Origin: an uncultured Eubacteriales bacterium
GTDB taxonomy: Bacteria > Bacillota > Clostridia > Oscillospirales > CAG-272
Direction of reading: 5' to 3'
Assembly (NCBI GenBank): GCA_934393265.1
Contig: CAKRQL010000001.1
Location: forward strand, 916 to 64,915
DNA: 64,000 nt
Of this stretch, positions 1,544-52,531 are shown in pieces; the stretch's first letter is position 1; every line of letters starts with the position of its first letter. The notes beneath the pieces were generated by a model. The model did not search any database. It was not told the origin of the DNA and saw only the letters and a list, made by a program, of their open reading frames with translations. The translations under genes were made by a program, and so were the position numbers.

Positions 1544-3004
1544 ATGGCTGACAATTCTATTTATCGCGATATTGCGAAACGCACCGGGGGCGACATCTAC
1601 ATAGGAGTTGTCGGACCGGTCAGGACGGGAAAATCAACATTTATACACAGATTTCTTGAATGTGCGGTTCTGCCGAATATCGAAAACGAATACGACAGGG
1701 CGCGGACAACCGACGAGCTCCCACAGAGCGCCACCGGGAAAACCATTATGACAACGGAGCCAAAATTTGTCCCCGACGAATCCGTGCGTATAAAGCTCGG
1801 AGACGGGACGGAGTTCAATGTCAAAATGATCGACTGCGTCGGATATATGGTAGACGGCGCGCTCGGCGCCATGGAGGGCGAGGATGTACGGATGGTCAAG
1901 ACCCCATGGTCCGAGGAGGCAATGCCGTTTTCCGAGGCGGCGGAGATAGGCACCGGAAAGGTCATCGGCGACCACTCCACGATAGGAATACTTGTTACTA
2001 CCGACGGGAGCTTTACCGACATTCCGCGCGAGAGCTATATCCCCGCCGAGGAGCGCGTCGCAAAAGAGCTGTCGGAAATCGACAAGCCATACGCAATAAT
2101 ACTTAATTCAGCAACCCCCGGAAATGAGGAGACAAAACGGCTCGCCGCCTCGCTCGAAGAAAAATACGGAGTTCCGGTAGCGCTCGTCGACTGCACGAAG
2201 CTAGACCGCGAGGATGTGCGCGAGATACTCGCGCTCGTGCTCTCGGAATTTCCTGTCAGAGAAGAAATATTCCGGCTCCCGGAGTGGATAACCGTACTGC
2301 CGGAGGAGCATCGGCTCTATCGCGAGGCCATCGCGCGGATAAGTGATTTTTCGGATAAAACCGAGCGCTTCTGCGATATAGAAAAAGCCCTCGCCGAGAC
2401 CGAGGGTATTGAAAAAGTAAGCGTCGACGCCGGGGACGGAACGGCAATATTCACACTGCCGGTGCCGCGGAGCGAATTTTACGGCGTCGTAAGCGAGATG
2501 ACCGGGCTCACCGTCGGTGACGACGCGGAGCTCTTACAGTGCATCGTGAAGCTCTCCGGCGAGGCACGTGAGTACGAAAAGGTCTCCGACGCACTTCGCG
2601 ATGTGAGGGAGCGCGGATACGGAATAGTCATGCCGGAGCCCGACGAGGTCGAGCTCGAGGAACCGGAGCTCGTAAAGCAGCCGGGCGGCTGGGGTGTCAA
2701 GGTCACGGCAAGAGCCGACTCCATACACATGATAAAAGCCGGGATAGTCGCCGACTTCAGCCCCGTTGTCGGGACGCAGGAGCAGTCCGAGGAGGTCGCA
2801 AAATATCTTATCGGTGAGTTTGAGGCAGACCCGAAAAAGGTATGGCAATCAAACATGTTCGGTCGCTCGCTCTATGATTTAATAAATGACGGCATGCACG
2901 CAAAACTTGCGCACATGCCGGATGAATCGAGAGAAAAAATGGGGCAGACGCTCGAGAAGATTATCAACGAAGGGTCTAACGGGCTTATCTGTATTCTTCT
3001 CTGA
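1544..3004 (+). CDS. spoIVA: Stage IV sporulation protein A (spore coat morphogenetic ATPase)
   Basis: 486 aa. The N-terminus IYIGVVGPVRTGKSTFIHRF (Walker A) and the overall length and colinearity match SpoIVA. A GGAGGA RBS is at 1531-1536. Confidence 0.9.
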   Translation: MADNSIYRDIAKRTGGDIYIGVVGPVRTGKSTFIHRFLECAVLPNIENEYDRARTTDELPQSATGKTIMTTEPKFVPDESVRIKLGDGTEFNVKMIDCVGYMVDGALGAMEGEDVRMVKTPWSEEAMPFSEAAEIGTGKVIGDHSTIGILVTTDGSFTDIPRESYIPAEERVAKELSEIDKPYAIILNSATPGNEETKRLAASLEEKYGVPVALVDCTKLDREDVREILALVLSEFPVREEIFRLPEWITVLPEEHRLYREAIARISDFSDKTERFCDIEKALAETEGIEKVSVDAGDGTAIFTLPVPRSEFYGVVSEMTGLTVGDDAELLQCIVKLSGEAREYEKVSDALRDVRERGYGIVMPEPDEVELEEPELVKQPGGWGVKVTARADSIHMIKAGIVADFSPVVGTQEQSEEVAKYLIGEFEADPKKVWQSNMFGRSLYDLINDGMHAKLAHMPDESREKMGQTLEKIINEGSNGLICILL

Positions 3005-5502: not shown

Positions 5503-8500
5503 GTGTCAGAAATGGCTGATAATAAAAGCAAGAAACAGACAGCGGGCGGATATGCAGGGCTTACCGGCTTTCGCCGCGCGATTCCTATAATTCTTTTCGC
5601 ATTCTCGGTATTCATCGCGCTTTGCTTCATAACGCAGAACACGGGGACCCTCGGACAAGCCATTGCCGGTTTTCTCACCGGGCTGTTCTCATGGGCAGCT
5701 TACGGTATACCGCTGCTCCTCGCAATTCATGCAATTTTCTACCCCTCCGACTCCGGAACGCACCGCGTCATAACCCGGGTAATATTCACAGTGATAACAC
5801 TCGTGCTCATCGCCGCGCTCGCGCATACGTTCACCGTCATCGGCACGGAGCCGGTGTTCACCCCCCGCGACTTCTACGAAGCCGGAAAAAGCTGCGTCGG
5901 CGGCGGGTTTATCGGCGGTGTTGTGGCGTATGGAATACTGCGCGTTATAGGCACAGTCGGAATGATAATACTCGCGGTAGCCATGGCAGCTCTCTATGTC
6001 GCATACTGCTTCTCCGGAAAAAACAGTTCACTTAAGCGTGCGGGGCTCTCCCTGCTCTCACTCATAGTCGGATTTTTCGCTCTCATTGAAAAAGGCATAA
6101 AAAAGCTTGTCCGTCGCTCTAAGGAGAAAAATGCCGAAAAGACGAAGCGCGTCGAGAACGCAAAGAACGAAAACCTCTACGAGGATGAGTTTTTCGCGGT
6201 CGACAACGGTATGCAGGAGCTAGAGATCCCGTCTCTCAACATAAAGGAGTCGCGCGACGACGAGAGCATAGAGGCTCACCCGACGCTCCATGACACGGTA
6301 TATCCGAAGAGCGAGGTCGGCGGCGAGAACCGACCGCCACGCCGTGTCGAGACCGATTACGGAATAGGAACCGACGGCACTTCCGATGACGAAAGCGCCC
6401 ATGACGGACCGGCAGACATAATAATAGAGTCCGAAGCCGAGGCAGCCCCCGCCACGGACGGAGACGAGCGCGACGAGGCGGCAAGCGAGGTCTTCGGAAA
6501 GGACTTTGACCCCTATGACATCGACCTCTCCGCCCCGCCGAAGCAAACGACGACGCGACGCGCCGACCCCGGAGTCTCAGAATACGAGAAACCGCTCGAC
6601 GAGGTTACGGAGGAGTCACTCGCGCGTGCGCGCCGTCTCGAGGAATTCGAGAGACGCAAGGCACAGCTCCTCGGCAAACAGCCGACAACCGGCACAGCGT
6701 CCGGAGAAGCCGCAACCGGAGCCCACACCGCCGGAGCGCAGACGCATACGTCGGCACAGAGCGCGGCGACAGAGCCTCAAAAGAGCAATGACACCACCGC
6801 GACAGCAACCGAAAAGAAGAACGAAAGCCCCGCCGGGGGCGGTGGAGAGCTGTCACGCGAGGAGCAGATAGCGAAAGCACGCAATTTCCGCCCGGACGGT
6901 GCGCCCCAGCGTGCCTTCCCCGGTCGCTCACAGCCGAATTACACGCCGGATATGCAGGGGAGCGGCAGCTTCTCCGCTTCTCCGCTCGACGCTGAGACCG
7001 GGTGTACAAATGACGACATAAAGAACATACTCGCAGGCAAATCCGACGACGCGGAGGCACCGGAGGACGGCGAAACAATGGAGTTCGGCAAGGCGGAGCC
7101 GGTGGCAAGCGAGCCGCCAGTCAGAGCCGAGGATTTCAACGTTGATGAATTTTTAGGCAGATACGGTACGCAGACCGACGCATCGCAAAGCGCCGCGGCA
7201 GCAAGGAGGGATGTGCCCCCCGCCACAGGTACGGACGGTACCACGATGAGCTTTGGCTACGAGCCTGCAAGAAACACCTATGCCCCTCCGACAACCGAGG
7301 GCGCGACAACCGGGTATGAGCGCCGCACCTCAGACTATCGCCCGGATAACGACACGGCAGGCACACATGCCGAAGAAACGCAGGCACAGCCGACGGGCGG
7401 AGCCGCGACCGTAAGCTCCGCAAGAGACGGAATGTCATATATCCGCACCGCAAGGTTTGTATCATCCATGACGGCAGAGCCGGAAAAACCGGAGCCCGAG
7501 AAAACCGTTATAAAGGATTTTAAGCCCGCATCCGAAATCCTCACCGAGCTGCCGGAGAGGAAGCAGGAGGCAGCCGATACGGAGGACAAGCAGGAAGATG
7601 CCCCTGCCCTGCGCATTGAGCGCTCAAAGGTCGGAGACAGCTTATCTGCCCCGGCTGTCAGTGCGCCGGAGGAGGAAGATGTGCCCGAAATGACGGAAGA
7701 GGACGAGCCGGAAGAGGACGAAGAGGACGCAACCGGGCTCGACAGCTATACCGAGGATGTCCCGGAGGCGGAGGAGATCCCCCCGGAAAAGCAGAATCCG
7801 GACATACTGGATTACAGAAAGCGCTTTACGATATTCTCCGACAGCGCGCCGGAGAATAAGCAGAGCGATAACGGAGCGAGCGGCGGGCTCGACTTTGAGC
7901 CCGGCGACGATTTTGAAATAAGCACCGACGGCGATAAAGACGAGACTGACGACGACGAAAATGCCGACAGCAACGGCACAGATGACAGCGACGCGGAATA
8001 TATCGACGAGCCGGAGGACGAAATCGAAGAGAATGACAGTGACGAGACGGACGACGAAACGGATGAATATGACGATGAGCCGGATGAAGAGGACGCGGAG
8101 GACGATCTACCCCCGTTTGACAATGCAAAGGATGTAAGCACCCCCGCAAAGGAGGTCAGCGCCGCGCCCGACTACTCGAACTATGCCCCGCCCCCGCTCA
8201 CACTGCTTAAAGCTCCGCCGGAGGTCGACGACTCCGACGCCACGGAGGAGATACAGCGCAATTCCGAAAAGCTCATAGACACGCTCGCCTCCTTTAACGT
8301 CAATGCATCAATCAAGGGCGTCGACCGCGGGCCGCGTATCACAAGATACGAGGTTGTCCCCGCAAGAGGCGTCAAGGTCAGCCAGGTAACGAGCCTGTTT
8401 GACGATATAACGATGAACCTTGCCTCCGAGGGAATACGCATGGAGGCACCCATACCCGGGCAGTCCGCCATAGGCTTTGAGATACCGAATGCTCACCCTG

Positions 8501-9678
8501 CGACGGTTTTCCTCCGCTCACTTATCGAGAGCGACGAGTTCTCCACCGCGAAGTCGAACACCTTCTCCTGTATAGGAAAGGATGTAACCGGAAACCCTGT
8601 GTTCTTCGATATTGCAAAGGCGCCGCACCTGCTGATAGCCGGTGCAACCGGTATGGGTAAGTCGGTATGTATAAACTCTATTCTTGTCAGCATGCTGTGT
8701 AAGGCAAGACCGGACGAGCTGAAGCTGATACTTGTCGACCCGAAGAAGGTCGAGTTCCAGGTCTATGAAAAGATACCTCACCTGCTCGTCCCCGTCGTGA
8801 CGGATGTCAAACAGGCGGCAGGCGCGCTCTCATGGGCTTGCGAACAGATGGAAAAGCGGTACGAGCTCATGATGAGCATTGCCGTAAGAAATATCGACGC
8901 CTACAACGAGCGCGTCGCAGACGACCCGTCGCTCGGCGAGCCGATGACAAAGATAGTGATAGTAATCGACGAGCTTAACGACCTCATGATGGCGGCGCGC
9001 GACCCGGTCGAGGGACTGATAACCCGCCTTGCCCAGAAAGCGAGAGCCGCGGGAATACACCTGATAATCGGTACACAGCGCCCGTCGGTAAACGTCATAA
9101 CCGGCGTTATAAAGGCGAACATTCCGTCAAGACTTTCATGCAAGGTCTCCTCGAACGTCGACTCGCGCACCATTATAGAGCAGGCAGGAGCCGAAAAGCT
9201 CCTCGACAAGGGCGACGCGCTCTTCTGGCCCGTCGGAAAGCCTAAGCCGCTCCGCGTACAGTGCGCGTTCGTCTCCGATAAGGAGGTCGAGGCGGTCATG
9301 AAGTACCTCTGCTCGCAGTCCACCGGCAACACGTACAGCGAGGAGATACTCGCTGAAATCAACTCTGCGGCGCAGAAATGCATGGCACCGAAGAAGGGCA
9401 AGGAGTCCTACGACGAGGACGGCGAGGACGGCGCAGGCTCCGACGGATATTACAACGACCAGAAGTTTATCGAGGCGGTCGAAATCGCGGTACGCTCAAA
9501 GAAAATCTCGACAAGCCTTCTTCAGCGCAGACTCAGCATAGGCTACAGCAAGGCGGCAAAATATATCGATGTCATGGAGGACCTCGGCATAGTCTCCGAG
9601 CCCAACGGACAGAAGCCGCGCGACGTACTCATTGATATGGACGAATGGAAGGAGAGGCTCTCCCGCTACGAGTCCTGA
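5503..9678 (+). CDS. ftsK: DNA translocase FtsK/SpoIIIE with an unusually long disordered linker
   Basis: N-terminal TM helices, a C-terminal motor with Walker A GATGMGKSVCINS, and a gamma winged-helix domain (KISTSLLQRRLSIGYSKAAKYIDVMEDLGIV). RBS is AAGGAG. Total length 1391 aa. Confidence 0.9.
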   Translation: MSEMADNKSKKQTAGGYAGLTGFRRAIPIILFAFSVFIALCFITQNTGTLGQAIAGFLTGLFSWAAYGIPLLLAIHAIFYPSDSGTHRVITRVIFTVITLVLIAALAHTFTVIGTEPVFTPRDFYEAGKSCVGGGFIGGVVAYGILRVIGTVGMIILAVAMAALYVAYCFSGKNSSLKRAGLSLLSLIVGFFALIEKGIKKLVRRSKEKNAEKTKRVENAKNENLYEDEFFAVDNGMQELEIPSLNIKESRDDESIEAHPTLHDTVYPKSEVGGENRPPRRVETDYGIGTDGTSDDESAHDGPADIIIESEAEAAPATDGDERDEAASEVFGKDFDPYDIDLSAPPKQTTTRRADPGVSEYEKPLDEVTEESLARARRLEEFERRKAQLLGKQPTTGTASGEAATGAHTAGAQTHTSAQSAATEPQKSNDTTATATEKKNESPAGGGGELSREEQIAKARNFRPDGAPQRAFPGRSQPNYTPDMQGSGSFSASPLDAETGCTNDDIKNILAGKSDDAEAPEDGETMEFGKAEPVASEPPVRAEDFNVDEFLGRYGTQTDASQSAAAARRDVPPATGTDGTTMSFGYEPARNTYAPPTTEGATTGYERRTSDYRPDNDTAGTHAEETQAQPTGGAATVSSARDGMSYIRTARFVSSMTAEPEKPEPEKTVIKDFKPASEILTELPERKQEAADTEDKQEDAPALRIERSKVGDSLSAPAVSAPEEEDVPEMTEEDEPEEDEEDATGLDSYTEDVPEAEEIPPEKQNPDILDYRKRFTIFSDSAPENKQSDNGASGGLDFEPGDDFEISTDGDKDETDDDENADSNGTDDSDAEYIDEPEDEIEENDSDETDDETDEYDDEPDEEDAEDDLPPFDNAKDVSTPAKEVSAAPDYSNYAPPPLTLLKAPPEVDDSDATEEIQRNSEKLIDTLASFNVNASIKGVDRGPRITRYEVVPARGVKVSQVTSLFDDITMNLASEGIRMEAPIPGQSAIGFEIPNAHPATVFLRSLIESDEFSTAKSNTFSCIGKDVTGNPVFFDIAKAPHLLIAGATGMGKSVCINSILVSMLCKARPDELKLILVDPKKVEFQVYEKIPHLLVPVVTDVKQAAGALSWACEQMEKRYELMMSIAVRNIDAYNERVADDPSLGEPMTKIVIVIDELNDLMMAARDPVEGLITRLAQKARAAGIHLIIGTQRPSVNVITGVIKANIPSRLSCKVSSNVDSRTIIEQAGAEKLLDKGDALFWPVGKPKPLRVQCAFVSDKEVEAVMKYLCSQSTGNTYSEEILAEINSAAQKCMAPKKGKESYDEDGEDGAGSDGYYNDQKFIEAVEIAVRSKKISTSLLQRRLSIGYSKAAKYIDVMEDLGIVSEPNGQKPRDVLIDMDEWKERLSRYES

Positions 9679-16700: not shown

Positions 16701-19700
16701 GTGGCAAAAAGCATTTACACAAGATACAAAGAGCGCCTCATTGAGATAGGCGGAAACAACCGCTGTCTCTATCTCAAAAGCGCCGCCAGAAGAAACGCAT
16801 ACGACATCGGGCGTCTGCTCGAGGGTCGGAACAAAAAGATAGAAGAATTCGGCGATTTTCTGTGGACGAAAAACAGATATCCGCTGACGCTCATAAATAA
16901 CCGTGAAAAGAAAGAGATCCTTGAAAATCTCGACATACAAGCCCGCCTCGAAAAGCGGAGCACCGATGTATCTGCTCTCACCGGCGAGGAGGCGCAGCGC
17001 GCACAGGCAAAGAACGACAGAATCCGCCGCGAGGAGAGCTCCCGCGCGATAGAGGCGGAAATAAAGAAGATAAAGGACCTGAAGCGCGAGATCGAGGAGA
17101 TAGAAAAGGAGACCGGGCGATATGAGCTCTATCTCGGTTATCCCTTTGTTTTCGGCGCGATAAATCAGGGACCCACAAAGACATTCATCAAGGCGCCCCT
17201 GCTCCTCTTTCCCATAAAAATAGACCTTCCGGACGAGAACACGGTGGAGATAAGCATAAACGAAGCCGAAAAGATACGGATAAACAACGCGCTCGTTTTT
17301 GCATATGCCCAGTCGAAAAAGCTGAATATAGAGCAGCTTGAGCTCGAATTTGACGATATGAGCCGCTTCGGCAGTATCGGCGACATAGTGAAATATCTTG
17401 ACAGTGCTCATATACATATCGACTGCTCGGAGTCAAACAACATATTCAACTATCAGCGTTTCAAGGAGCCGGGACCGAAGTCCGAGCTCTCTGTGCGCTA
17501 TGCGGCTATAATCGGGCGTTTCCCTCTCTCAAACTCGATATACAACGACTACACCGACCTTGAAAAAAAGAAGCTTACAAACGATGCGATAAACGAGCTG
17601 CTCCGCCCGTCATCGGTAAAGCGGCGCGGACGAACAAAGACTAAAAAGAATACGCGCGGAGAGCTCCCGAACAGTTATATTGTAAAACAGCTCGACTATG
17701 CGCAGTCGGAGGTCGTGCGCCGCGTCGACGAAAACGGCAACATGGTCATATACGGACCTCCCGGAACCGGAAAATCGCAGACAATAGTCAATGTCATCAC
17801 CGACGCGATATGCAAAAACAAGCGCGTCCTCGTCGTCTCACAGAAGAAAGCCGCGCTGGATGTCGTTTACAACCGTCTCGGCGTCCTCAACGAGAAGGCG
17901 ATGTACATAACCGAAGAGACAAAGGAAAAGGCATCGTTCTATGATCGCTGTCTGTCCGCACATCAGAAGGACCAGATAGAGAGCCTCGCCGACGTTCCGG
18001 CAATGGAACGCGAATACAATGAGCTCCAGAGCAAGATAAATGCCGAGGTTGCATCTCTTCAGACGATATTTGATCTCCTCAACAAAAAGCGCCCGTTCGG
18101 ATTATCCCTCGCGGAGATGTACGCATCCTCTTCCATGCTTGCGAAAAACACAAACGAGTATGCAGTGTATCTCAAAATGATAGACGACCCGCAGATAATG
18201 GCACTCGACTACAAGCAGCTCTCGGACGCGCTCTTTGTGATAAAGTCAAAAAATCTCGCGAACCTCTATTACAATTATATAGAAGATAAAGAGCAGAACC
18301 CCGTAATCGACTACATGAAGCCGGATTTAGATATCCGCACGCTCAGCGAGGTCAAGGGAAAGCTCGAGGATCTGCAGAAATCGCGCAGAGGGCTTTTCAA
18401 CACCGCGAAATATCCCTATTACCGTCAGGTGCTCGCATACTACTACGAGATAAACGACGCTGAGTCACTCGACAGAGTCGTCAACCTGCAATGCAAATTC
18501 AGGTACGGAAAGAAGCTGTTTGTAGGAAAGCAGAGAAATCAGATACGCGAAGAGTTTGTGAACACTGCGGCTGCAATACGCGCCTTTGTAAAGGAATATG
18601 ATTGCCTGCACTCCGTGCTCTCGGACGACGGATATCTCGCCGTCATAGATAATATACTCCGTGGCAACACGAGTTACACAAGGCTTGTTCGCGAGGCACT
18701 CGACAACTACATATCCCTGCGGGATGTCAACAACCTCCTCGAAAGTCTCGACACAAACAAGCTTCTGATACTCAACTTTGCCTACACGATAAGCAAAAGC
18801 TACGCAAACTACACCGATATAATAGACAAGTTCCTTGAAATACGAATATATGACGAGGTCCTGCGCTATGAGGACGAATGTAAGGGAGACCTTGCAAAGC
18901 TCGTAGACTATCAGAACATTACATCGCGCATATCCGCCCTGCAGGAGCAGCAGCTCGCGGTCGCAAACAAGCTCTGCGCCGGGAAGAACAGCCGCGAATA
19001 CGACGCGCTGTTTGAAAAGGCGGTAAACCGCAAGGACTATCTTTATCAGATCTCAAAGAAACAGAAGTACTGGCCGATACGAAAGACGATGGATGTTTAC
19101 TCCGACTTCATACTCTGTCTATTCCCCTGCTGGCTGCTATCACCCGAGAATGTCTCTTCCCTGCTCCCGCTGAAGAAGAATATGTTTGATATTGTTATAT
19201 TTGACGAGGCATCGCAGGTATTTATCGAAAGCACGATTCCGACAATCTATCGCGGAAAGAACATAGTCGTCGCGGGAGATGCAAAGCAGCTCCGCCCGTC
19301 TGCAACATTCATGAAGCGGTATCTCGGTGCCGACCCCGAAAACGAGGAGGACTACTCGGTACAGGCGGCGTTGGAGGTTGAGTCACTCCTTGACCTTGCG
19401 GTCGCAAGATACGGGAGCGCAAACCTTACCTACCACTACCGCTCAAAGAACAGCGAACTCATAGACTTTTCAAACAGCGCATTCTACCAGACCGAGCTGC
19501 GCATAGCGCCGAATATCTCAAAGAACCGCCTGTCGCGTCCTATCGAGCGCTATAAGGTCGCGGGAAAATGGATAGACAGGAAGAATGTGCAGGAGGCGAA
19601 GAAGGTCGTAGAGCTCCTATCCGAAATCTTCCGCACACGGAAGAACAACGAGAGTATAGGAATTATTACCTTCAACAGTGAACAGTGCAGCTGTATATCC

Positions 19701-20516
19701 GACGCCATAGATCGCGAGGCGGCGAAAAATCCGGACTTCCGCTCCGCGTATATAAAAGAGTCTTACAGAATAGACAACGGCGAGGACTGCAGTATATTCG
19801 TAAAGAATCTCGAAAACGTACAGGGTGATGAGCGCGATATAATCATATTCTCCATAGGCTATGCTGAAAACGAGCTGGGTAAGGTCTACACGTCCTTCGG
19901 CTCTCTCTCTTCGGAGGGCGGTGAGAACCGGCTCAACGTTGCCATAACCCGTGCAAAATCAAAGATAATAGTCGTCACAAGCATCGAGCCCGAGGCACTT
20001 AAGGTCGATACCGCAAAGAACCTCGGACCCAAGCTTCTGCAGAAGTATCTCATGTACGTCAGAGCCGTTTCTGCCGGAAATATTGATGTCGTAAAGACGA
20101 TACTCGCAGAGCTCGACCCTAAGGAGACAAAGGCAAACAGCGTGCTTACCTCCTCTCTACCCATTGAATTGCAGATGAAGGAGCGGCTCGAGAAGCTTGG
20201 CTACAAGGTCGACACCGCGCTGGGCAACCGGAACAACCGCATATCGCTCGCGGTATATGATGAGAAGCAGGACCGTTATCTTGTCGGCGTAGAGCTCGAC
20301 ACGGACGCCACGGCATCCTCTGAGTCGATACTGGAGCGCGATGTGTACAAGCCGAAGTTCCTCGAGGCACGCGGATGGACGATTATGCGCGTCTGGTGCC
20401 GCGACTGGTGGCTCTCACCGCAGAAGGTCATCAAGGCTATTGCGGCGACAGCCGACAGAAACGCCGGTAAGAAACCGGCGAAGGAAACGAAAGATACCGC
20501 CAGAGAAGCAATATAA
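16701..20516 (+). CDS. SF1 (Upf1-like) helicase with a DUF4011-like N-terminus and a C-terminal Vsr/DUF559-like nuclease fold
   Basis: GTG start after ACGGAGG. Motifs: Walker A VIYGPPGTGKSQT, IFDEASQ, QGDERDIIIFS, LNVAITRAK. The C-terminus reads GVELD..ERDVYKPKFLEARGWTIMRVWCRDWW. Confidence 0.85.
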   Translation: MAKSIYTRYKERLIEIGGNNRCLYLKSAARRNAYDIGRLLEGRNKKIEEFGDFLWTKNRYPLTLINNREKKEILENLDIQARLEKRSTDVSALTGEEAQRAQAKNDRIRREESSRAIEAEIKKIKDLKREIEEIEKETGRYELYLGYPFVFGAINQGPTKTFIKAPLLLFPIKIDLPDENTVEISINEAEKIRINNALVFAYAQSKKLNIEQLELEFDDMSRFGSIGDIVKYLDSAHIHIDCSESNNIFNYQRFKEPGPKSELSVRYAAIIGRFPLSNSIYNDYTDLEKKKLTNDAINELLRPSSVKRRGRTKTKKNTRGELPNSYIVKQLDYAQSEVVRRVDENGNMVIYGPPGTGKSQTIVNVITDAICKNKRVLVVSQKKAALDVVYNRLGVLNEKAMYITEETKEKASFYDRCLSAHQKDQIESLADVPAMEREYNELQSKINAEVASLQTIFDLLNKKRPFGLSLAEMYASSSMLAKNTNEYAVYLKMIDDPQIMALDYKQLSDALFVIKSKNLANLYYNYIEDKEQNPVIDYMKPDLDIRTLSEVKGKLEDLQKSRRGLFNTAKYPYYRQVLAYYYEINDAESLDRVVNLQCKFRYGKKLFVGKQRNQIREEFVNTAAAIRAFVKEYDCLHSVLSDDGYLAVIDNILRGNTSYTRLVREALDNYISLRDVNNLLESLDTNKLLILNFAYTISKSYANYTDIIDKFLEIRIYDEVLRYEDECKGDLAKLVDYQNITSRISALQEQQLAVANKLCAGKNSREYDALFEKAVNRKDYLYQISKKQKYWPIRKTMDVYSDFILCLFPCWLLSPENVSSLLPLKKNMFDIVIFDEASQVFIESTIPTIYRGKNIVVAGDAKQLRPSATFMKRYLGADPENEEDYSVQAALEVESLLDLAVARYGSANLTYHYRSKNSELIDFSNSAFYQTELRIAPNISKNRLSRPIERYKVAGKWIDRKNVQEAKKVVELLSEIFRTRKNNESIGIITFNSEQCSCISDAIDREAAKNPDFRSAYIKESYRIDNGEDCSIFVKNLENVQGDERDIIIFSIGYAENELGKVYTSFGSLSSEGGENRLNVAITRAKSKIIVVTSIEPEALKVDTAKNLGPKLLQKYLMYVRAVSAGNIDVVKTILAELDPKETKANSVLTSSLPIELQMKERLEKLGYKVDTALGNRNNRISLAVYDEKQDRYLVGVELDTDATASSESILERDVYKPKFLEARGWTIMRVWCRDWWLSPQKVIKAIAATADRNAGKKPAKETKDTAREAI

Positions 20517-43944: not shown

Positions 43945-43985
43945 ATAACTGTGAAATAATTATGAAAATTAAAAGGCGGTTTTAT

Positions 43986-45599
43986 ATGACACTCGGAAAA
44001 AAGATAACCGAGCTCCGGCGCTCTGCCGGAATGTCGCAGGAGGAGCTGGCAGAACGGCTCGACGTCTCGCGACAGGCAATCTCAAAATGGGAGATGGACC
44101 AGGCACAGCCGCAGACAGACAAGCTGCTCGCACTCTCGGACCTGTTCTCCGTCAGCACCGACAGGCTACTTCGTAACAGTGAGGAGCTCCGGCAGGAGGG
44201 ACGCGGGGCGGGAAGATATTTCGGTACCGACGGCTTTCGCGGCGAGGCTAACATAACGCTCACGTCGATGCAGGCATACCGCGTCGGTCGCTTTCTCGGC
44301 TGGTACTACTCTTCCCCGCTGTCCGGGGCTGTGCACGGAGGACACCGCGTCCGTATCGTTATAGGCAAGGACACGCGGCGCTCAAGCTATATGCTCGAAT
44401 ACTCTATTGTCGCGGGAATAACAGCCTCCGGAGCCGATGCCTACATGCTCCATGTTACGACTACGCCGAGCGTTTCCTATGTGACACGTCAGGAGGACTT
44501 TGACTGCGGGGTTATGATAACCGCGTCGCACAACCCATACACCGACAACGGAATAAAGGTGATAAACAGGTTCGGCGAAAAGCTCGACGACAGGACGGCG
44601 GCACTGATTGAGGATTATATTGACGGCGACCTCTCCCCTCTCGGTTTTCCCGGAGATGAGCTCCCGCTCGCCACAGGGGAGAAAATCGGGCGGATAATCG
44701 ACCATGTAGCCGGGCGCAACCGCTACATCGGTTATCTTATATCACTCGCCTCAAACTCCTATCGCGACCTGCGGATAGGTATCGACTGTTCAAACGGGGC
44801 GGCATGGAACATCGCGCCCTCTGTATTCGGGGCTCTCGGCGCGCGGCTTTATATTATCGGCGACACGCCGGACGGACTGAACATCAACCGTGACTGCGGA
44901 TCTACACACATTGAAAATCTCCGACAGGCTGTGCGCGCGCAGAAGCTCGACATCGGGTTTGCCTTTGACGGTGACGCTGACAGGTGTATCGCCGTGGACG
45001 GCGGCGGAAATGTGGTCGACGGGGATAAAATAATGTATATTCTCGCGCAGAGGCTACGCCGCCTGGGTATGCTCGCCGACGACACGGTGGTGGCGACGGT
45101 GATGTCCAACAGCGGTTTCTTCAAGAGCCTTGAGCGCGCGGGAATGAAGTGTGTACAAACGGCGGTCGGCGACCGGTTCGTATACGAGAGGATGCAGAAA
45201 GACGGGTACTCCATAGGCGGTGAGCAATCCGGTCATATAATACTCCGCAAATACGCGACGACGGGCGACGGAATACTCACGGCAATAATGCTAACGGAGG
45301 AGGTATGCGACAGGAAAACCCCGCTTGCAGAGCTCGCCGCCCCGGTGACCCTCTACCCCCAGTACACCGTAAATATAAAGGTAAAGGATAAGGACGCCGT
45401 TATGACGGACAGGTGCGTCACCGAGGCACTCAACCGCGTCAACGCTCTTATCGGCGGGAACGGGAGAGTTCTTCTCAGAAAGAGCGGAACAGAGCCGGTA
45501 ATCAGGGTTATGACAGAGACGGAAGCACTCGGAAAATGTAAGGAATACGCTAATATTGTCGCAGACGCGATAAAAGCGGGAGGATACGGAATTGAATAA
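43986..45599 (+). CDS. glmM: Phosphoglucosamine mutase with an N-terminal XRE-type HTH domain (fusion)
   Basis: N-terminal LGKKITELRRSAGMSQEELAERLDVSRQAISKWEMDQAQP, then RYFGTDGFRGEAN and ITASHNPYTDNGIKV (active-site Ser). One uninterrupted frame, with no start codon near the junction. Confidence 0.85.
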   Translation: MTLGKKITELRRSAGMSQEELAERLDVSRQAISKWEMDQAQPQTDKLLALSDLFSVSTDRLLRNSEELRQEGRGAGRYFGTDGFRGEANITLTSMQAYRVGRFLGWYYSSPLSGAVHGGHRVRIVIGKDTRRSSYMLEYSIVAGITASGADAYMLHVTTTPSVSYVTRQEDFDCGVMITASHNPYTDNGIKVINRFGEKLDDRTAALIEDYIDGDLSPLGFPGDELPLATGEKIGRIIDHVAGRNRYIGYLISLASNSYRDLRIGIDCSNGAAWNIAPSVFGALGARLYIIGDTPDGLNINRDCGSTHIENLRQAVRAQKLDIGFAFDGDADRCIAVDGGGNVVDGDKIMYILAQRLRRLGMLADDTVVATVMSNSGFFKSLERAGMKCVQTAVGDRFVYERMQKDGYSIGGEQSGHIILRKYATTGDGILTAIMLTEEVCDRKTPLAELAAPVTLYPQYTVNIKVKDKDAVMTDRCVTEALNRVNALIGGNGRVLLRKSGTEPVIRVMTETEALGKCKEYANIVADAIKAGGYGIE

Positions 45600-46403: not shown

Positions 46404-49400
46404 TTATCTGTACTGCTCCGCTTTTCCGCCGGCAAGAGTTATCATCTTGACAGCCTGAATGGAATATTTATCAGCCTCTATGGTCAGTGCCTTTGTCATC
46501 ACGCCTCCGGCAAGAACCTTTATTCTGCCTGCGTTCTTCGGGATGAGGCGCTTTTCCTTCAGCGACTCGAGAGTTACAAGCTCGCCGTCGTCATAATTAT
46601 CGCAGATCGTGCCGATGTTTATCTCGACAAGCTTACCGCTTCTTATTTCGATGGGGGCTATCTTCTCAAGGCTCTGCTCCGCCTCCTCGTCGGAGAGCCG
46701 TATATCAGCCTCCTCGGAGCTTATGAACACATGCGCGGGCTCCTCGGCTACGGGGTCTTCAACCTGTGCGGGCTCCTCGACTACGGGCTCTTCAGCCTGT
46801 GCGGGCTCCTCGACTACGGGTTCTTCGACCTGCGCGGGCTCCTCGGCTACGGGCTCTTCAGCCTGTGCGGGCTCCTCGGCTACGGGCTCTTCAGCCTGTG
46901 CGGGCTCCTCGGTCTTCTTCTCGTTGTCATCTGTCTCATGCGAGCCTATGAAGTCGCCGACATCGACCTTAATGATGCTCTCGTCTCCGTCGAGCTTTAC
47001 ACCCGCGGGAAGTATGAGCTTCACAAGCTTCTTTGCAACGAGCTGTTCATTCGTCTCGTACGGCATGTGGTAATCGACATTCGCGGGCTTGCCGAGCGGG
47101 AGCTCAAGCTTGCGCATAAGCTCCTCTATGAGTTCAAGCGCGTACTTCAACGAGCGGTTGGAGCGCACCTTGATCATCATAGGAGTTACATCAAACTTCG
47201 GCTTTCCGGAAACATCGGTGAAGTGATACTTGTTGACATTGTAATCCTTCGGGTCAAGTGCAAGATAAAGCATGAGAGCCTTACCCTTTGCGTTTATTCT
47301 CGCTATCGGGTCGCGCGACTTATTGAAGGACTCAATGTTCCAGCTCATTCTCGCCTTGATGCCCTTATAGGAGAGCAGCGTGTTCTTGATTACGGTGTAG
47401 TAATCCTGAAGCGAGCTGTCGCCCTGAATGAGTCTCGACATGAAGGAGCTGCGGTATCTTACAGGGACTAACTCACCGTTTATAAGTCTGTGGTCAGCGT
47501 CCACAAACGCGCCCGGCGCGTCCTCTCCGACGATTATCTTCGATTTACCCTTAGGCTCGGTCGCCTCTGCCACGGGTTCATCAACCTGTGCGGGCGTCTC
47601 CTCGACTATGGGCTCATCTATCTGTACTGCGGGTTCCCCGGCAGTCTGCGGCTCGCCGAACGTATCAGCGGGATTGAAGGGCTCGGTTCCGCTCACTCTC
47701 ACAAGGTCGCGGGCTATAAGCTCCTCTCTCGTCTCATACGGCAGGCTGAACACCTCGGATACCGTCGGCTCTGCATTTGTTACTGCACCCTTGCGCTCAA
47801 GCATGAGGACAAGAAGCTCCTTCGCATACTTCGCCTTTCTCTGAGAGGTAAGGCGGAGCATCATCGGCGTCGCGGCGTACTTCTTTATGCCGGACAGATC
47901 CTCGCCGCGGTACTTTGTTTCCGCAAATTCGTTCGGGTCAAGAGCAAAGGTCATGCAGAGTCTCTTTCCGCGGAAGAACAGATACGAAAGTGCATCTCTT
48001 CCGGTATTGACACGCACATGCTTCCAGCTCTCGCGTCTCTTGACATTCTTGTAGCTGTCAATGAGGTCGCAGATCTCGCCGAACCAGCTCTGTGTCTCCG
48101 CGCTCGACTGAATGAGCTTTGCACGGAAGCTGTAATTGTAGCGGATGCGCATTGCCTTACCGTCTATGTAAGTGACGACAACATCCTGCTCCTCTTCCTC
48201 GGTCACAGGGGGCTCTGCCTCCTCGGTCTCGGGCTCCTCTTCGTCAGATGCGGGAGCGATTACAGCGAGCTGCTCGGGCTCCTCCGCAGGTGCGGGAGCT
48301 TCCTCAACCTCGGGTTCTGCTTCGGTTTCGGGTTCAACCTCGGGCTCGGGCTCCTCTGCAGGTGCGGGAGCTTCCTCAACCTCGGGCTCAGGCTCTACCT
48401 CGGTTTCGGGTTCAACCACGGGCTCGGGCTCTGCCTCGGTTTCGGGCTCAACCTCGGGCTCGGTTATCTCCTCTGCCTCCGGAGCTGTCTCGGGCTCGGG
48501 CTCCGGCTCGTTCTCCGCCTGCTCTTCCTTCGGCTCCTCGGGCTCGGGCTTATTGTTGTGCTTGATAACAAGAAGTATTATCGCTATTATCAGAAGCACT
48601 GCCACTATGATAAGCGGGATTATCCACCACGGGAATCCGGCGGTCTCGGGCACAACCTCCGTCACCTCAACTATCGCATATATCGAGAAGTGCGGCGTTT
48701 CAAAGACCATGTAATTTCCGTCGCGGGTCGCGTCCATATCCGTGACATTTCCGTCATCGGATATATGAATAACCTTGAGATTCTTATCGCGGAGGTTTGC
48801 GGGGATAAGCAGGCGAACGCCGTAATTGCCGCTCGGAAGCGTCTGCATCGCTCCTCCGAAGGAGAAGTAAATGTCATACGCCGCCGCAACACGACCGGTA
48901 TATCCGTCCGGGAACTTTATTCCCGAGAGGTCGGCATTGGAATAATCGGAGGTCTTATCTACCGTATCAAGAACGAAGTTTTCGTTGATATCACTGTCGG
49001 ATATAACGGTGACAAGCTCGTTTCTGAATTCCTTTTTCGTCCCGAACGGGAGTATCGTCAGGGTAGCCGTCATGTCCGGGATAGGAGCGTGTTCATCATC
49101 TCCGGTGAACTTCGCCGTAAAGACGTAGCTGCCGGGAAGCATTCCCGCCTCGCCTGTTATCTCCACGGTAACACCGTCCGGAAGAGTTCCGGTTATCTTC
49201 AGATAATGCGGAAGTCCGTCATACGCAATAACGAGGTCCTCGAACTTCACACCGCTCATATCATAAGCGGGCTTGCCCTCTATGCGCCAGCTAAGATCTG
49301 CCGGGAGATTCTCGAGCTCGTAGTTCTTGCTGTCGTATCCGGTAAAGGTAACGCTTGCGGTATATTCGCCGGAGGCGGTCGCGCTGTTGCCGGTGTACTC

Positions 49401-52400
49401 TGCCACAAGACCGTATCCGTCCGGAATATTCTCAAGGGTTACGGTATGCGCCTTTCCGTCATAGTCAAACGGATTGGTGTAGCTCCACGTAACGCCGGAG
49501 AGGTCGATCTTCGCCTTTGCTATCGTCCATGTCAGAGTAGTCTGAATATTATCTGAGAGGGTGTAATTCTGAGAGTCGTACGCAAGTATTGCCGTTGCAC
49601 TGTACGGACCCGCGTCGGTTGCGGTATTATCCCGGTAGGTAGCGGTGACGCCGTCGGGAAAGTTAATGAGCTCAACGGTATGTACGCTTCCGTCATAGGT
49701 GAAGGGGTTGGTGTAGCTCCACTTCACATCCGACATATCAATCTGAGCCTTGTTTATCGTCCACGACAGGTCAGCTACGTTATTGTTCGCAAGCTCATAG
49801 TTGTCAGCGTCGTAGGCGAAAACTGCCTTTGCGGTATAGGTCCCTGCATTTGTTCCCTTATCCCCGGTGATTGTCGCTGTGACAAGCTCCGGAAGATTTT
49901 CAAGAGTTACGGTATGCTCGGTTCCATTATAAGTGAAGGGATTTGTGTAGCTCCACTTCACACCCGACATATCAATCTGAGCCTTGTTTATCGTCCACGA
50001 CAGGTCGACAATGTTGTTGTTCGCAAGCTCATAGTTGTCAGCGTCGTAGGTGAAAACTGCCTTTGCGGTATAGGTCCCTGCATTTGTTCCCTTGTCTCCG
50101 GTGAATGTCGCTGTGACAAGCTCCGGAAGATTTTCAAGGGTTACGGTATGCTCGGTTCCATTATAAGTAAAGGGATTTGTGTAGCTCCACTTCACATCCG
50201 ACATATCAATCTGAGCCTTGTTTATCGTCCACGACAGGTCGTCGACGGTATTCGTCAGCTCGTAGTTATCAGCGTCGTAGGTGAAAACTGCCTTTGCGGT
50301 ATAGGTCCCTGCATTCGTTCCCTTATCCCCAGTGATTGTCGCTGTGACAAGCTCCGGAAGATTTTCAAGGGTTACGGTATGCTCGGTTCCGTCATAGGTA
50401 AAGGGATTTGTGTAGCTCCACTTCACCGCAGACATGTCTATACTGCCCTTCCCTATCCCGACGATTATCTCGCGGGAGGTCACAGCACTTACACCCGAGA
50501 CGGAGGTGAGAGATACCTCGCAGGTGTAGACACCGCTGTCCGCGACGGTCGTAAGATCAAGATAAGATTTTGTTGCGCCGTCGATGAGTATGCCGTCCTT
50601 ATACCATTTGTAGGCAAAATGCGGGTCCTGCACTGCGACAGAAGCCCTCACAAATATACGGTGAGACGTGCCGTCGTACTTTACATTGACGTCACCGCTG
50701 TCGGTGAGCTCAATGCCGAGGAGAACGGGAGTAAGAGCCACATCCGCATCCGGCATCTCGGTAACGGAATTTCCGTCAGCGTCAACCCATCCGAGAACGG
50801 TGAGTCCCTCTATCCCCGGAGCGAAGAGCCCTATATCGGCACCCGCAGGAAGAACGCCTTGACGGATAGTCCTGCCGTTATACACATACTCAACCTTGTT
50901 TACCCTCGGAGCCTCTACCGTCACATCAACGGCAAGGTTTATTTCGGTCTCACGGAAGAAGGAGGCGATGAGCGCCGCCTTCGACGCGCTTATCGGCTCG
51001 AGGAGCTTCTCGACATTTACGGTGAAGCTTCCCTTTGCGGAGAACACGCCGCTGCCCTTATAGAAGTCCATAACGGTTACCGTGCGGTACTTCTCGGGAA
51101 GCATCTCAAAGTAGGTCTCAAACATGCGGCAAAGCTTATTGTAGTAACGCTCGTATTCCGCAACCTTTGCAACTATCTGCTCGTTTGTAAGGTTGTCAAA
51201 ATCAATTCTTCCGGCGAAGAGCTTCTTGCACTCCTCTATGTACTTGTTCCCGCTCTGGAGCGCGCCCTCAAAGTCCACCTTACGGAGGAGCTCAAGGACA
51301 TCGTCAAACGTCAGAGTCTCGTAGAACGCATACATCTCGTCGCCGTCCTTTGTAAGAGCGGCAAAGAGCTTGTTCTTCAGATTGTCGGAGAGTTTCGTCG
51401 TGTCGCATGCACGGAGAAGAAGCTCCGAGAGCTTCATGGGCATATTCACGCCTATGACATACGCACCGTCGCTGCCACGGGAGACGGAGAGATGATCGGC
51501 TATCAGCTTCATTCCCTCTCTTATTCTCGTGCAGTCTCCGTCAAACCCGATTGTAAAGGAGAGGTTGCGCACACCAAACAGAGTGTCAAGCGAGATCTGC
51601 CATGTCAGGTTCATCTCGCTGTCCGACATAACCGCAATCTCAGAGGGTTTCGGAAGGTTGGAAATGAGGGTCTTCAGCGAGGATATATTGAAGTATCCCT
51701 GCGAATAGACGTCAAGCCCGTCAACACTCAGGGCATTTACGGCTGTGATAAGGTTACGGAGAGTGTAGACGGTCTTGTCAACCGCACCTTCGGCACCTGC
51801 GGAGTCGCTCTCCGCCTTTTTAACGGCGTCGGTGACCTTTGTCACAAGTGCTTCCTTCTCCTCTTCCGTGCCCTCTATGAGGTCGGAGGCATAGACCTTA
51901 TCCCAATTTATCGCGAGGAGCTCCTCGTATGTGAAGCCTGTCTCGGCGAGAAGGGGCATTAAGGTGTTCACATCAACATCGTTTACCGATCTGATGTTGT
52001 ACTTCGACAGTATACCGCGTATCCAGTCGGTATTCGTTATCTCACTGTCGGGTACGTCGGAGGTCGTCGTCCCCGCGGGATACTTATCGGTATTCTCGCG
52101 GATTATCGTTTCCTTGACCTCCTCCTTGACAGACGCCTTGAGCTCTTCCTTGTCTCCGACCACTATCTTCGTGAGCACCGAAGTTATATGGTCCTTGAGA
52201 ACCGAAATGTCACTGCGCGTCAGGTCAAAATAGGATTTCACGCTCGGATTGAGCGTGACGGTGAGTCTGCCCTCGGTATAGTCGATGGTATACCACTTCG
52301 TCTCGTCGTGTTCATCCTGCGATGTATCACCGGGCGCGGCGAACGACACAGCGGCGAAAGACGCGAAAACCATCAGAGCCATGAGCAGAGCCAGCACCGT

Positions 52401-52427
52401 TGCTTTGAGCTTTGTGAGTTTTTTCAT
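46404..52427 (-). CDS. Giant (2007 aa) single-pass envelope protein: signal peptide, repeat-rich ectodomain, TM helix, long cytoplasmic tail ending in a uL15-like domain
   Basis: Signal peptide [30 protein letters not shown]. Six tandem MBG-like domains of about 77 aa (..YDG..HTVT...G.NAGTY...). TM helix [24 protein letters not shown] (nt ~48564-48635). The tail holds E/P-rich spacers, two paralogous ~150-aa modules and a C-terminal uL15-like segment. Confidence 0.85.
46735..46912. repeat. 33-bp in-frame tandem repeat (5 full copies plus a partial), encoding [11 protein letters not shown] units
   Basis: GCGGGCTCCTCGGCTACGGGCTCTTCAGCCTGT-type units start at 46735, 46768, 46801, 46834 and 46867. 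Confidence 0.9.
49060..50441. repeat. In-frame tandem domain repeats of about 231-237 bp (six units; three nearly identical)
   Basis: The motif ..GTGTAGCTCCACTTCAC..GACATATCAATCTGAGCCTTGTTTATCGTCCACGACAGGTC recurs at about 49700, 49934 and 50168 (234-bp period). More diverged units flank them. Confidence 0.85.
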
Positions 52428-52502: not shown

Positions 52503-52531
52503 ATTATAGCAGTGATTGTGTGCAAAATCAA
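52503..52531 (-). promoter_or_regulatory. Sigma-A promoter of the giant gene
   Basis: The minus strand reads TTGATT, 17 nt, TATAAT. Confidence 0.5.

Follow-up and report, generated by a model that had tools for sequence, protein, structure and literature searches.

What is a ribosomal-protein domain doing at the cytoplasmic end of a giant surface protein? The question is raised by a 64,000-nucleotide (nt) stretch of contig CAKRQL010000001.1 from an uncultured Eubacteriales bacterium (hereafter the window), in which positions 46404-52427 of the reverse strand form a single uninterrupted open reading frame (ORF) of 2007 amino acids (aa). A first description made from the letters alone (the sequence-only reading) had proposed an envelope protein whose cytoplasmic tail holds two modules and ends in a uL15-like domain. 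We interpret the gene product as a giant, adhesin-like surface protein of type I membrane topology with a portable, membrane-tethered cytoplasmic binding cassette; from its domains we infer that the cassette binds nucleic acid or a ribonucleoprotein (RNP), and we rate the reading as a whole somewhat below an even chance. No database record matches the exact sequence of the protein.

A hydropathy scan found only two hydrophobic segments, a signal-peptide-like N-terminus and aa 1265-1288, which divide the protein into an ectodomain of 1234 aa (aa 31-1264) and a tail of 719 aa (aa 1289-2007), close to the ~1230 and ~715 aa first estimated. Since a signal peptide and a single transmembrane (TM) helix force the tail into the cytoplasm, the topology originally read by eye, with a cleavable-type signal peptide, one TM helix followed by KHNNK, and both the modules and the uL15-like domain inside the cell, agrees with the computed one. 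Clusters of K and R in the relatives point the same way. Nearly all giant members show a 'W(W/L)WI...' helix, then KKK or RRK, then acidic D/E-P-T stretches; relatives in which a short ectodomain lies between a signal peptide and a TM helix carry K/R directly after the helix; and relatives whose only TM helix is N-terminal are uncharged ahead of that helix and carry clustered K/R behind it. The cassette is predicted to be cytoplasmic in every architecture. In the window protein, the tail opens with the E/P-rich spacer noticed earlier (net charge -52), and the 11-aa repeats that had been seen before the terminal domain were resolved by TRF as a 33-nt unit repeated 5.4 times at 46735-46912, within the third acidic linker (Table 1).

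A terminal domain derived from uL15

Pfam PF00828 (Ribosomal_L27A) matched aa 1935-2004 of the protein over the entire profile (all 72 positions; E 1.7e-11; 44.8 bits, cut-off 21.5), and the score reached 52.1 bits with the tail alone as the query. A profile built from 33 family members and compared with PDB sequences returned residues 70-144 of Enterococcus faecalis uL15 (E 4.4e-17), then some 60 uL15/eL18 chains and nothing else, and hhalign aligned the terminal domain with residues 72-145 of the 146 residues of Bacillus subtilis uL15 (probability 98.3%, 32% identity). An AlphaFold2 model of the last 123 aa (pLDDT 88) gave only uL15 chains as top Foldseek matches (probability 1.00), the best with a root-mean-square deviation of 1.0 Å over 74 columns. 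Collectively, the Pfam, PDB profile, hhalign and Foldseek results agree with the sequence-only reading, which had recognized the C-terminal half of uL15 in the last ~75 aa and had made this claim depend on a profile or structural match of the last ~80 aa to uL15; such matches were obtained. The homology to uL15 residues ~70-145 holds for sequence as well as fold, Firmicutes uL15 proteins match best, and the domain closes the polypeptide, as it does in uL15.

The remainder of uL15 has no equivalent here. uL15 is a protein that binds ribosomal RNA (rRNA), and its basic, G/R/K-rich N-terminal extension of ~70 aa threads 23S rRNA. In the window protein, the position of this extension is occupied by an acidic helical pre-domain (net -6 over 30 aa, after a linker of net -28) with a motif, (H)V.A..AD...SDEEAE, that is conserved across the family. 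The rplO equivalog model TIGR01071 scored 40.5 bits, short of its cut-off of 77.95, and aligned only at model positions 71-143 of 144. Furthermore, the product of rplO is a free-standing protein of ~145 aa from the spc operon, whereas the domain described here belongs to a 2007-aa membrane protein that lies outside the ribosomal operon and has non-ribosomal neighbours. Because the rRNA-threading N-terminal half is missing and the score falls short of the rplO equivalog cut-off, the window protein is, by its sequence, not ribosomal protein uL15 and could not replace it. No further uL15-like ORF was found in the 64-kb window; a canonical rplO is expected in the spc operon elsewhere in the source genome.

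The domain also has a character of its own across the family. Its family-specific invariant residues (LARG, TK/DK, KMI) differ from those of canonical uL15, and its median isoelectric point (pI) is 9.3, compared with a net charge of 0 for the C-terminal domains (CTDs) of E. faecalis and Listeria uL15. Conserved in the family, by numbering within the last 123 residues (aa 1885-2007), are K86, R90, K95, S105 and G116-G117; the module, too, has conserved basic positions. Among the solved structures searched, the uL15/eL18 fold occurred in ribosomal proteins only, and a homolog search with B. subtilis uL15 returned close Bacillus relatives only.

Paired modules and a widespread cassette

Between the TM helix and the terminal domain lie two modules that are 36% identical over 158 aa (E 2e-34). 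The sequence-only reading had placed a paralogous ~150-aa pair at matching coordinates and had called it unknown; this description still applies insofar as the modules belong to no Pfam family, and it no longer applies to their fold, which is YjbR/DUF1801/DUF5655-like, or to their relatives, which include the PDC-S18 family of PADLOC. An AlphaFold2 model derived from a 45-sequence alignment (pLDDT 95.4, pTM 0.88) runs from a beta-hairpin through helices, a four-stranded antiparallel sheet and a long helix to a C-terminal helix-strand. Its best Foldseek matches in the PDB were E. coli YjbR (2fki) and the DUF1801/YdhG-like structures 2oc6 and 9t2w (probability 0.94-0.97, E 0.03-0.06, TM-scores 0.38-0.57, or 0.50-0.57 when normalised by the target). 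Among predicted viral structures (BFVD), the two top matches were DUF5655 phage proteins (E 2e-4 and 1.3e-3, probability 1.00). On the strength of the predicted structure, we confidently assign the modules to the alpha+beta sandwich fold of the DUF5655/YjbR/DUF1801 group.

With YjbR/MmcQ (PF04237), YdhG-like DUF1801 and DUF5655 proteins, the modules share the helix/antiparallel-sheet/helix sandwich. They differ in their larger size (~165 aa), in possessing an additional hairpin at the N-terminus and a helix-strand at the C-terminus, and in standing in tandem on a membrane anchor with acidic spacers between them. YjbR/MmcQ has been described as having the 'double-wing' DNA-binding fold of T4 MotA (PMC7641849), and the modules are basic, as such DNA-binding proteins are (PMC7641849), with a median pI of 9.2 across the family. 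At the sequence level, 3 of 45 single family modules matched Pfam DUF5655 (best E 0.039), and the summed DUF5655 match of a five-module relative, P0121, reached E 3.6e-17. PADLOC PDC-S18 matched once per window module (E 6.3e-12 and 1.7e-8), covering model positions ~195-327 only (the C-terminal ~120 positions); the N-terminal ~190 positions of this single-gene system have no counterpart in the protein. The module profile retrieved nothing from PDB sequences, and a comparison with PHROGs yielded noise only.

The notion that the protein is a one-off did not survive a wider search. The tail retrieved 664 proteins at E <= 1e-3, all carrying automatic names only ('uL15 family ribosomal protein' or 'hypothetical protein') and originating from Clostridia/Oscillospiraceae metagenome-assembled genomes (MAGs). 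By scanning one genome per GTDB species with a CTD alignment and the motif A[VI]KMIxL[ATV]GG, we confirmed loci with a uL15-like tail in at least 573 species-representative genomes, the giant-ectodomain form being common. The 80 loci listed all come from uncultured Clostridia, Eubacteriales, Oscillospiraceae or 'Ruminococcus' of animal guts, and over the last 123 aa one short contig (L001) shares 96% identity with the window. Architectures were counted on the 39 complete genes within the 80 fetched loci, 29 of which encode proteins of 1550-2640 aa with a large ectodomain and one TM helix followed by modules and the uL15-like domain. Nearly all of these giant-form proteins start with a signal-peptide-like segment; they contain 0-2 modules, and their uL15-like domain stands at the extreme C-terminus. 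P0174 (1957 aa), from an independent assembly, is 82-90% identical to the window protein with the same domain order, so that the junction of tail and ectodomain seen at the outset is kept in this protein and in at least 29 loci.

An exhaustive hidden Markov model (HMM) search with the module profile yielded 3,580 clusters at 50% identity (3,284 at E <= 1e-10), whose members carry up to 7 modules each and are up to 6,312 aa long; the uL15-like domain is also present in ~39% of the top 141 new module-cluster representatives. The cassette is anchored by proteins with a near-zero or a short ectodomain, by proteins with a giant ectodomain, which in complete genes reaches ~2600 aa, and by an apparently 11-TM protein, and module-only tails stop right after the module. 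Three contigs carry a split form (L084, 6001-11903; also L085 and L086). Its first gene encodes a soluble 336-aa module+CTD protein, and the gene immediately downstream encodes a 1198-aa surface protein that has a signal peptide and a C-terminal TM helix; the third gene encodes a protein of 426 aa that is anchored at its N-terminus and matches YjbR faintly. The occurrence of both split and fused forms is an argument that the cassette and large surface proteins are functionally linked. As far as these sequences tell, the cassette is portable between anchors and widely distributed. A tblastn search of phage and plasmid records with the module gave no matches, and viral contigs contained 1 locus among 2.9 million; the family is therefore cellular, not mobile. 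Literature searches on uL15 fusions, PF00828, DUF5655 and PDC-S18 found no study of the uL15-tail family, in line with the initial statement that no characterised protein is known to have the same architecture.

Some relatives deserve separate mention. At L076 (2621-8342), the uL15-like domain is encoded in a separate 162-aa ORF overlapping the end of a 1788-aa ORF; a frameshift or misassembly of that MAG is the probable reason. A fusion to an ABC permease (P0045) was not relied on, since it comes from just one 3.2-kb contig and its permease match is sub-threshold. Soluble multi-module relatives contain a partial segment resembling DUF2357, which is the McrC N-terminal domain (PMC11090510). 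One of them, the two-module P0094 (weak DUF2357) at L081 (4379-8703), adjoins a 528-aa match to PDC-M26A (E 2.6e-34), in surroundings with GGDEF/EAL genes and with no McrB-like gene seen.

The surface part and its genomic surroundings

Table 1. Features of the uL15-tail gene and its upstream region (window positions, strand and basis of each assignment)
Feature	Position	Strand	Basis or remark
Whole gene, 2007-aa type I membrane protein	46404..52427	-	ATG start; stop codon 46404-46406; ORF list
Signal peptide, aa 1-30 (MKKLTKLK...SFA/APGD; K-rich n-region, hydrophobic core)	52338..52427	-	hydropathy scan and direct sequence reading
N-terminal ectodomain region, aa 31-560, no Pfam family	50748..52337	-	28-35% identity in 32/80 related loci
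Ig-like segment, aa 600-650, sub-threshold	50478..50630	-	Pfam Ig_2 E 1.9e-5, 25.3 bits vs cut-off 27
Six tandem ~78-aa MBG-like repeats, aa 663-1126	49050..50441	-	jackhmmer self-search; TRF
Juxtamembrane ectodomain, aa 1131-1264, conserved 20-aa motif	48636..49037	-	40-56% identity in 35 loci
Single TM helix, aa 1265-1288, then KHNNK	48564..48635	-	hydropathy maximum 3.66; family-wide K/R cluster after helix
Acidic E/P-rich disordered linker 1, aa 1289-1419, net charge -52	48171..48563	-	composition, charge; degenerate 18-72-nt repeats
Module 1, aa 1420-1585, net +8, pI 9.5, DUF5655/YjbR-like fold	47673..48170	-	module HMM E 2.2e-59
Acidic linker 2, aa 1586-1647, net -11	47487..47672	-	charge
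Module 2, aa 1648-1812, net +11, pI 9.7, DUF5655/YjbR-like fold	46992..47486	-	AlphaFold2, Foldseek, PADLOC
Acidic linker 3, aa 1813-1900, net -28, with 11-aa repeats	46728..46991	-	TRF, charge
Family-specific acidic pre-domain, aa 1901-1930, two short helices	46638..46727	-	conserved motif; pLDDT 87-92; net -6
uL15 C-terminal-domain paralog, aa 1931-2007, extreme C-terminus	46407..46637	-	PF00828, PDB profile search, hhalign, Foldseek
Promoter-like site, TTGATT-17-TATAAT, extended TG	52503..52531	-	consensus match only; 205-bp gap upstream of gene
Upstream co-oriented gene, 1093-aa protein, signal peptide and C-terminal TM helix	52633..55914	-	immediate same-strand upstream neighbour, 24 related loci

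Three parts of the window ectodomain are conserved in 32-35 of the 80 loci. The N-terminal part (aa 31-560) gave no significant Pfam match, and the juxtamembrane motif stands before the TM helix in most relatives. The six tandem ~78-aa units between them support the adhesin-like repeat array that had been proposed for the outside of the cell. Their number, six, was reproduced by jackhmmer, while the label of MBG-like domains remained below threshold: of the MBG families examined (PF18676/PF18887, cut-off 25 bits), MBG_2 scored 17.3 bits (E 0.0072) and MBG_3 gave E 0.29. At the DNA level, TRF reported a 234-nt unit repeated 3.2 times with 92% matches, and the first three repeats are nearly identical. 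Sortase (LPXTG) anchoring was considered for VPETAG before the TM helix and rejected, given that this sequence is not conserved in orthologs and that 719 aa, not a short tail, follow the helix; no family-wide conserved LPXTG-type motif was found before the helix. Like MBG/Ig-repeat adhesin-like Firmicutes surface proteins, the protein starts with a signal peptide, has a long ectodomain in which beta-rich units of ~78 aa stand in tandem, and carries its membrane anchor C-terminal to these. It differs from them in having no conserved LPXTG-type signal and in replacing their short basic stop-transfer tail with a structured cytoplasmic tail of 719 aa.

The 1093-aa protein encoded immediately upstream has homologues in 24 loci (33-36% identity over ~1000 aa) and matches no Pfam family. 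It contains a Tyr-rich heptad-like region (EYRSALSEYENYLDARSRYLAEYEIYSAYL), P-rich linkers and several F/Y-x-GW repeat domains, and its C-terminal TM helix carries a short basic tail. Because it is the conserved immediate upstream neighbour in the 24 related loci, this protein is probably a surface partner of the uL15-tail protein. In the window, the gene is surrounded by genes for this surface protein, YitT, a hexapeptide transferase and a helix-turn-helix (HTH)-PGM fusion; the downstream genes, for the hexapeptide transferase and the HTH-phosphohexomutase fusion, are convergent and unrelated. The latter (43962-45599(+)) is an unusual regulator-enzyme fusion of 545 aa, in which an XRE-type HTH (HTH_3) is joined to a complete four-domain phosphoglucomutase/phosphomannomutase (GlmM-like). 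In 54 of the 80 loci (e.g. L005, gene +1), a ~191-aa protein (MKSIYLFCTK...YPLI...FSSRD...) with two N-terminal TM helices is encoded just downstream; tblastn found no copy of it in the window. It was rejected as an operon partner, being mostly convergent and missing from the window, and was treated as synteny. Two antisense ORFs inside the gene (47490-49556(+), 688 aa, and 49680-51962(+), 760 aa) were likewise rejected as genes and regarded as shadow ORFs that result from the repeats and the compositional bias of the coding strand.

The window is chromosomal and derives from a spore-forming anaerobe, as indicated by SpoIVA, FtsK/SpoIIIE, a GyrB/ParE-like protein and an [FeFe] hydrogenase. SpoIVA (1544-3004(+)) is complete with all three domains, which identifies the source organism as an endospore former. 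The FtsK/SpoIIIE protein (5503-9678(+), 1391 aa) has a very long linker, and the 6-10 kb stretch shows a GC content of 0.56-0.60 and an AT skew of up to 0.37, consistent with a low-complexity linker. At 16701-20516(+), a 1271-aa protein combines DUF4011, an AAA_11/AAA_12 helicase and REase_MTES_1575, a helicase-nuclease layout typical of defence-type genes.

What the cassette may bind and why it matters

Since both folded domain types belong to nucleic-acid lineages, are basic and sit on long acidic disordered spacers, we regard a leash for nucleic acid or RNP as the most likely function of the tail, and RNA or RNP is slightly favoured because the terminal domain is of uL15 origin. In the mechanism that we favour, the basic modules and the uL15-derived domain would bind nucleic acid, RNA or an RNA-protein particle, which would be held at the inner membrane face below the surface protein on a flexible leash of tens of nanometres; the acidic stretches may serve as entropic spacers, as electrostatic competitors or as both. 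Such an arrangement would resemble the FtsK/SpoIIIE-type organisation in its membrane tether, long flexible linker and distal cytoplasmic binding domain, and differs from it in lacking an ATPase motor and any homology and in having a single TM anchor behind a giant ectodomain. Cytoplasmic tails that capture ribosomes or mRNA at the membrane are known from YidC2/Oxa1 (C-terminal tails) and from the endoplasmic reticulum receptor p180. The likeness may be one of concept only, that of a membrane-protein tail as a ribosome or mRNA receptor: those tails are basic coiled coils or repeats, and the tail in the window protein ends in a folded ribosomal-protein domain.

Several observations weigh against the binding of nucleic acid or RNP. 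The uL15 C-terminal domain alone holds little of the rRNA-binding surface of uL15, and the copy in the window protein is only mildly basic (net +2). Basic domains near the membrane could bind anionic lipids instead. The gene neighbourhoods hold envelope proteins only, not genes for translation or nucleic-acid metabolism. For the modules, the link to YjbR/DUF5655 is, as modelled, at the fold level only: Foldseek against the PDB found nothing at E <= 1e-3, and the window modules gave no Pfam match at E <= 10, single modules staying below every Pfam threshold. An hhalign comparison of the module with the neighbouring membrane-tethered protein in L084 (the one with the faint Pfam YjbR match) was not significant (probability 1.7%). 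Membership of the soluble multi-module relatives in McrBC was also rejected, their DUF2357 matches being partial and one neighbourhood containing no McrB gene.

The sequence-only reading had further suggested a link to translation or the ribosome, and this suggestion is weakened by the loss of the rRNA-threading half and by the resident uL15 on the mature 50S subunit. Anchoring of ribosomes through the uL15 site on mature subunits is unlikely, because the resident uL15 fills that homologous site and the extension that gives most rRNA contacts is missing. We consider it doubtful that the terminal domain acts as a functional extraribosomal uL15 paralog and docks structured RNA or rRNA-containing particles, for instance 50S subunits that lack uL15 or are still being assembled, with the modules helping to tether them to the inner membrane face under giant surface proteins; this would be the first non-ribosomal use of the uL15/eL18 fold.

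It is also possible, if on the unlikely side, that the uL15-derived domain and the modules form an exapted scaffold, which would serve protein-protein contact, oligomerisation or the binding of anionic lipids and would cluster, anchor or organise the surface protein from inside, e.g. through a link to a partner in the cytoplasm or at the membrane. The exchange of the basic extension, with most of the rRNA contacts, for an acidic pre-domain fits such a scaffold, as do invariant residues (LARG, TK/DK, KMI) unlike those of canonical uL15, conserved neighbours that are envelope proteins (the 1093-aa protein in 24 loci, the 2-TM 191-aa protein in 54) and module-only tails that end straight after the module. 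However, both domain types come from nucleic-acid-associated lineages, basic folded domains paired with acidic spacers are typical of nucleic-acid binders, and the 191-aa neighbour, missing from the window and mostly convergent, reflects synteny rather than an operon. A role in membrane-level defence or exclusion appears improbable to us. Here the cassette would bind foreign DNA or RNA entering at the envelope, the surface part possibly acting as a decoy or receptor and the modules as a target-recognition domain, which would account for the module match to the candidate-defence family PDC-S18, the PDC-M26A-matching gene beside the soluble relative P0094, the McrC-N (DUF2357)-like segment in soluble relatives and the occurrence of DUF5655-like folds in phage proteins. 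By contrast, the family lies in conserved chromosomal synteny over many species, not in variable islands, and is nearly absent from phages, plasmids and viral contigs; the window protein has no nuclease or other effector domain, and the PDC systems are themselves candidates only.

Transmembrane signalling, in which engagement of the ectodomain would release or rearrange the tail (e.g. by intramembrane proteolysis) and the tail would regulate transcription or translation, would make sense of a large sensory-looking ectodomain joined via one TM helix to putative nucleic-acid-binding domains, and of the apparently soluble module+CTD proteins. We nonetheless hold it to be very improbable, given that many members are almost without an extracellular part and have an N-terminal TM helix only, that no cleavage or sorting motif is conserved beside the TM helix, and that a protease is not among the conserved neighbours. 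An artefact, be it a chimera formed when repeats were assembled or a mistaken fusion of a correctly annotated ribosomal protein gene, is scarcely credible. Near-identical 234-nt repeats and 33-nt repeats could mislead an assembler, yet the independently assembled P0174 (82-90% identical) and at least 29 full-length orthologs, drawn from different MAGs, have the same domain order, the tail and every part of the ectodomain are conserved together, and the TIGR01071 rplO score is 40.5 bits against 77.95, over positions 71-143 only.

In summary, each part of this protein is of a known kind, be it the globular fold of uL15, the YjbR/DUF5655-like fold or the surface protein rich in repeats. Undescribed are the way in which they are combined and the use of a uL15 domain outside the ribosome on a membrane tether, and we expect the finding to surprise specialists of both the ribosome and the envelope. 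Here the uL15 fold closes the cytoplasmic tail of membrane proteins from hundreds of species of uncultured gut Clostridia, paired with a domain family of ~3,600 clusters that has no Pfam entry. A practical consequence is that proteins of up to ~2,800 aa are labelled "uL15 family ribosomal protein", which can mislead annotation and marker-gene analysis with PF00828. If the cassette does bind RNA or ribosomal particles, giant surface structures would be coupled to translation or the nucleic-acid machinery, and the docking of rRNA particles would make these proteins a bacterial counterpart of a membrane ribosome or mRNA receptor. If there is no such binding, the family would represent a clear recruitment of a ribosomal-protein domain for a new job.

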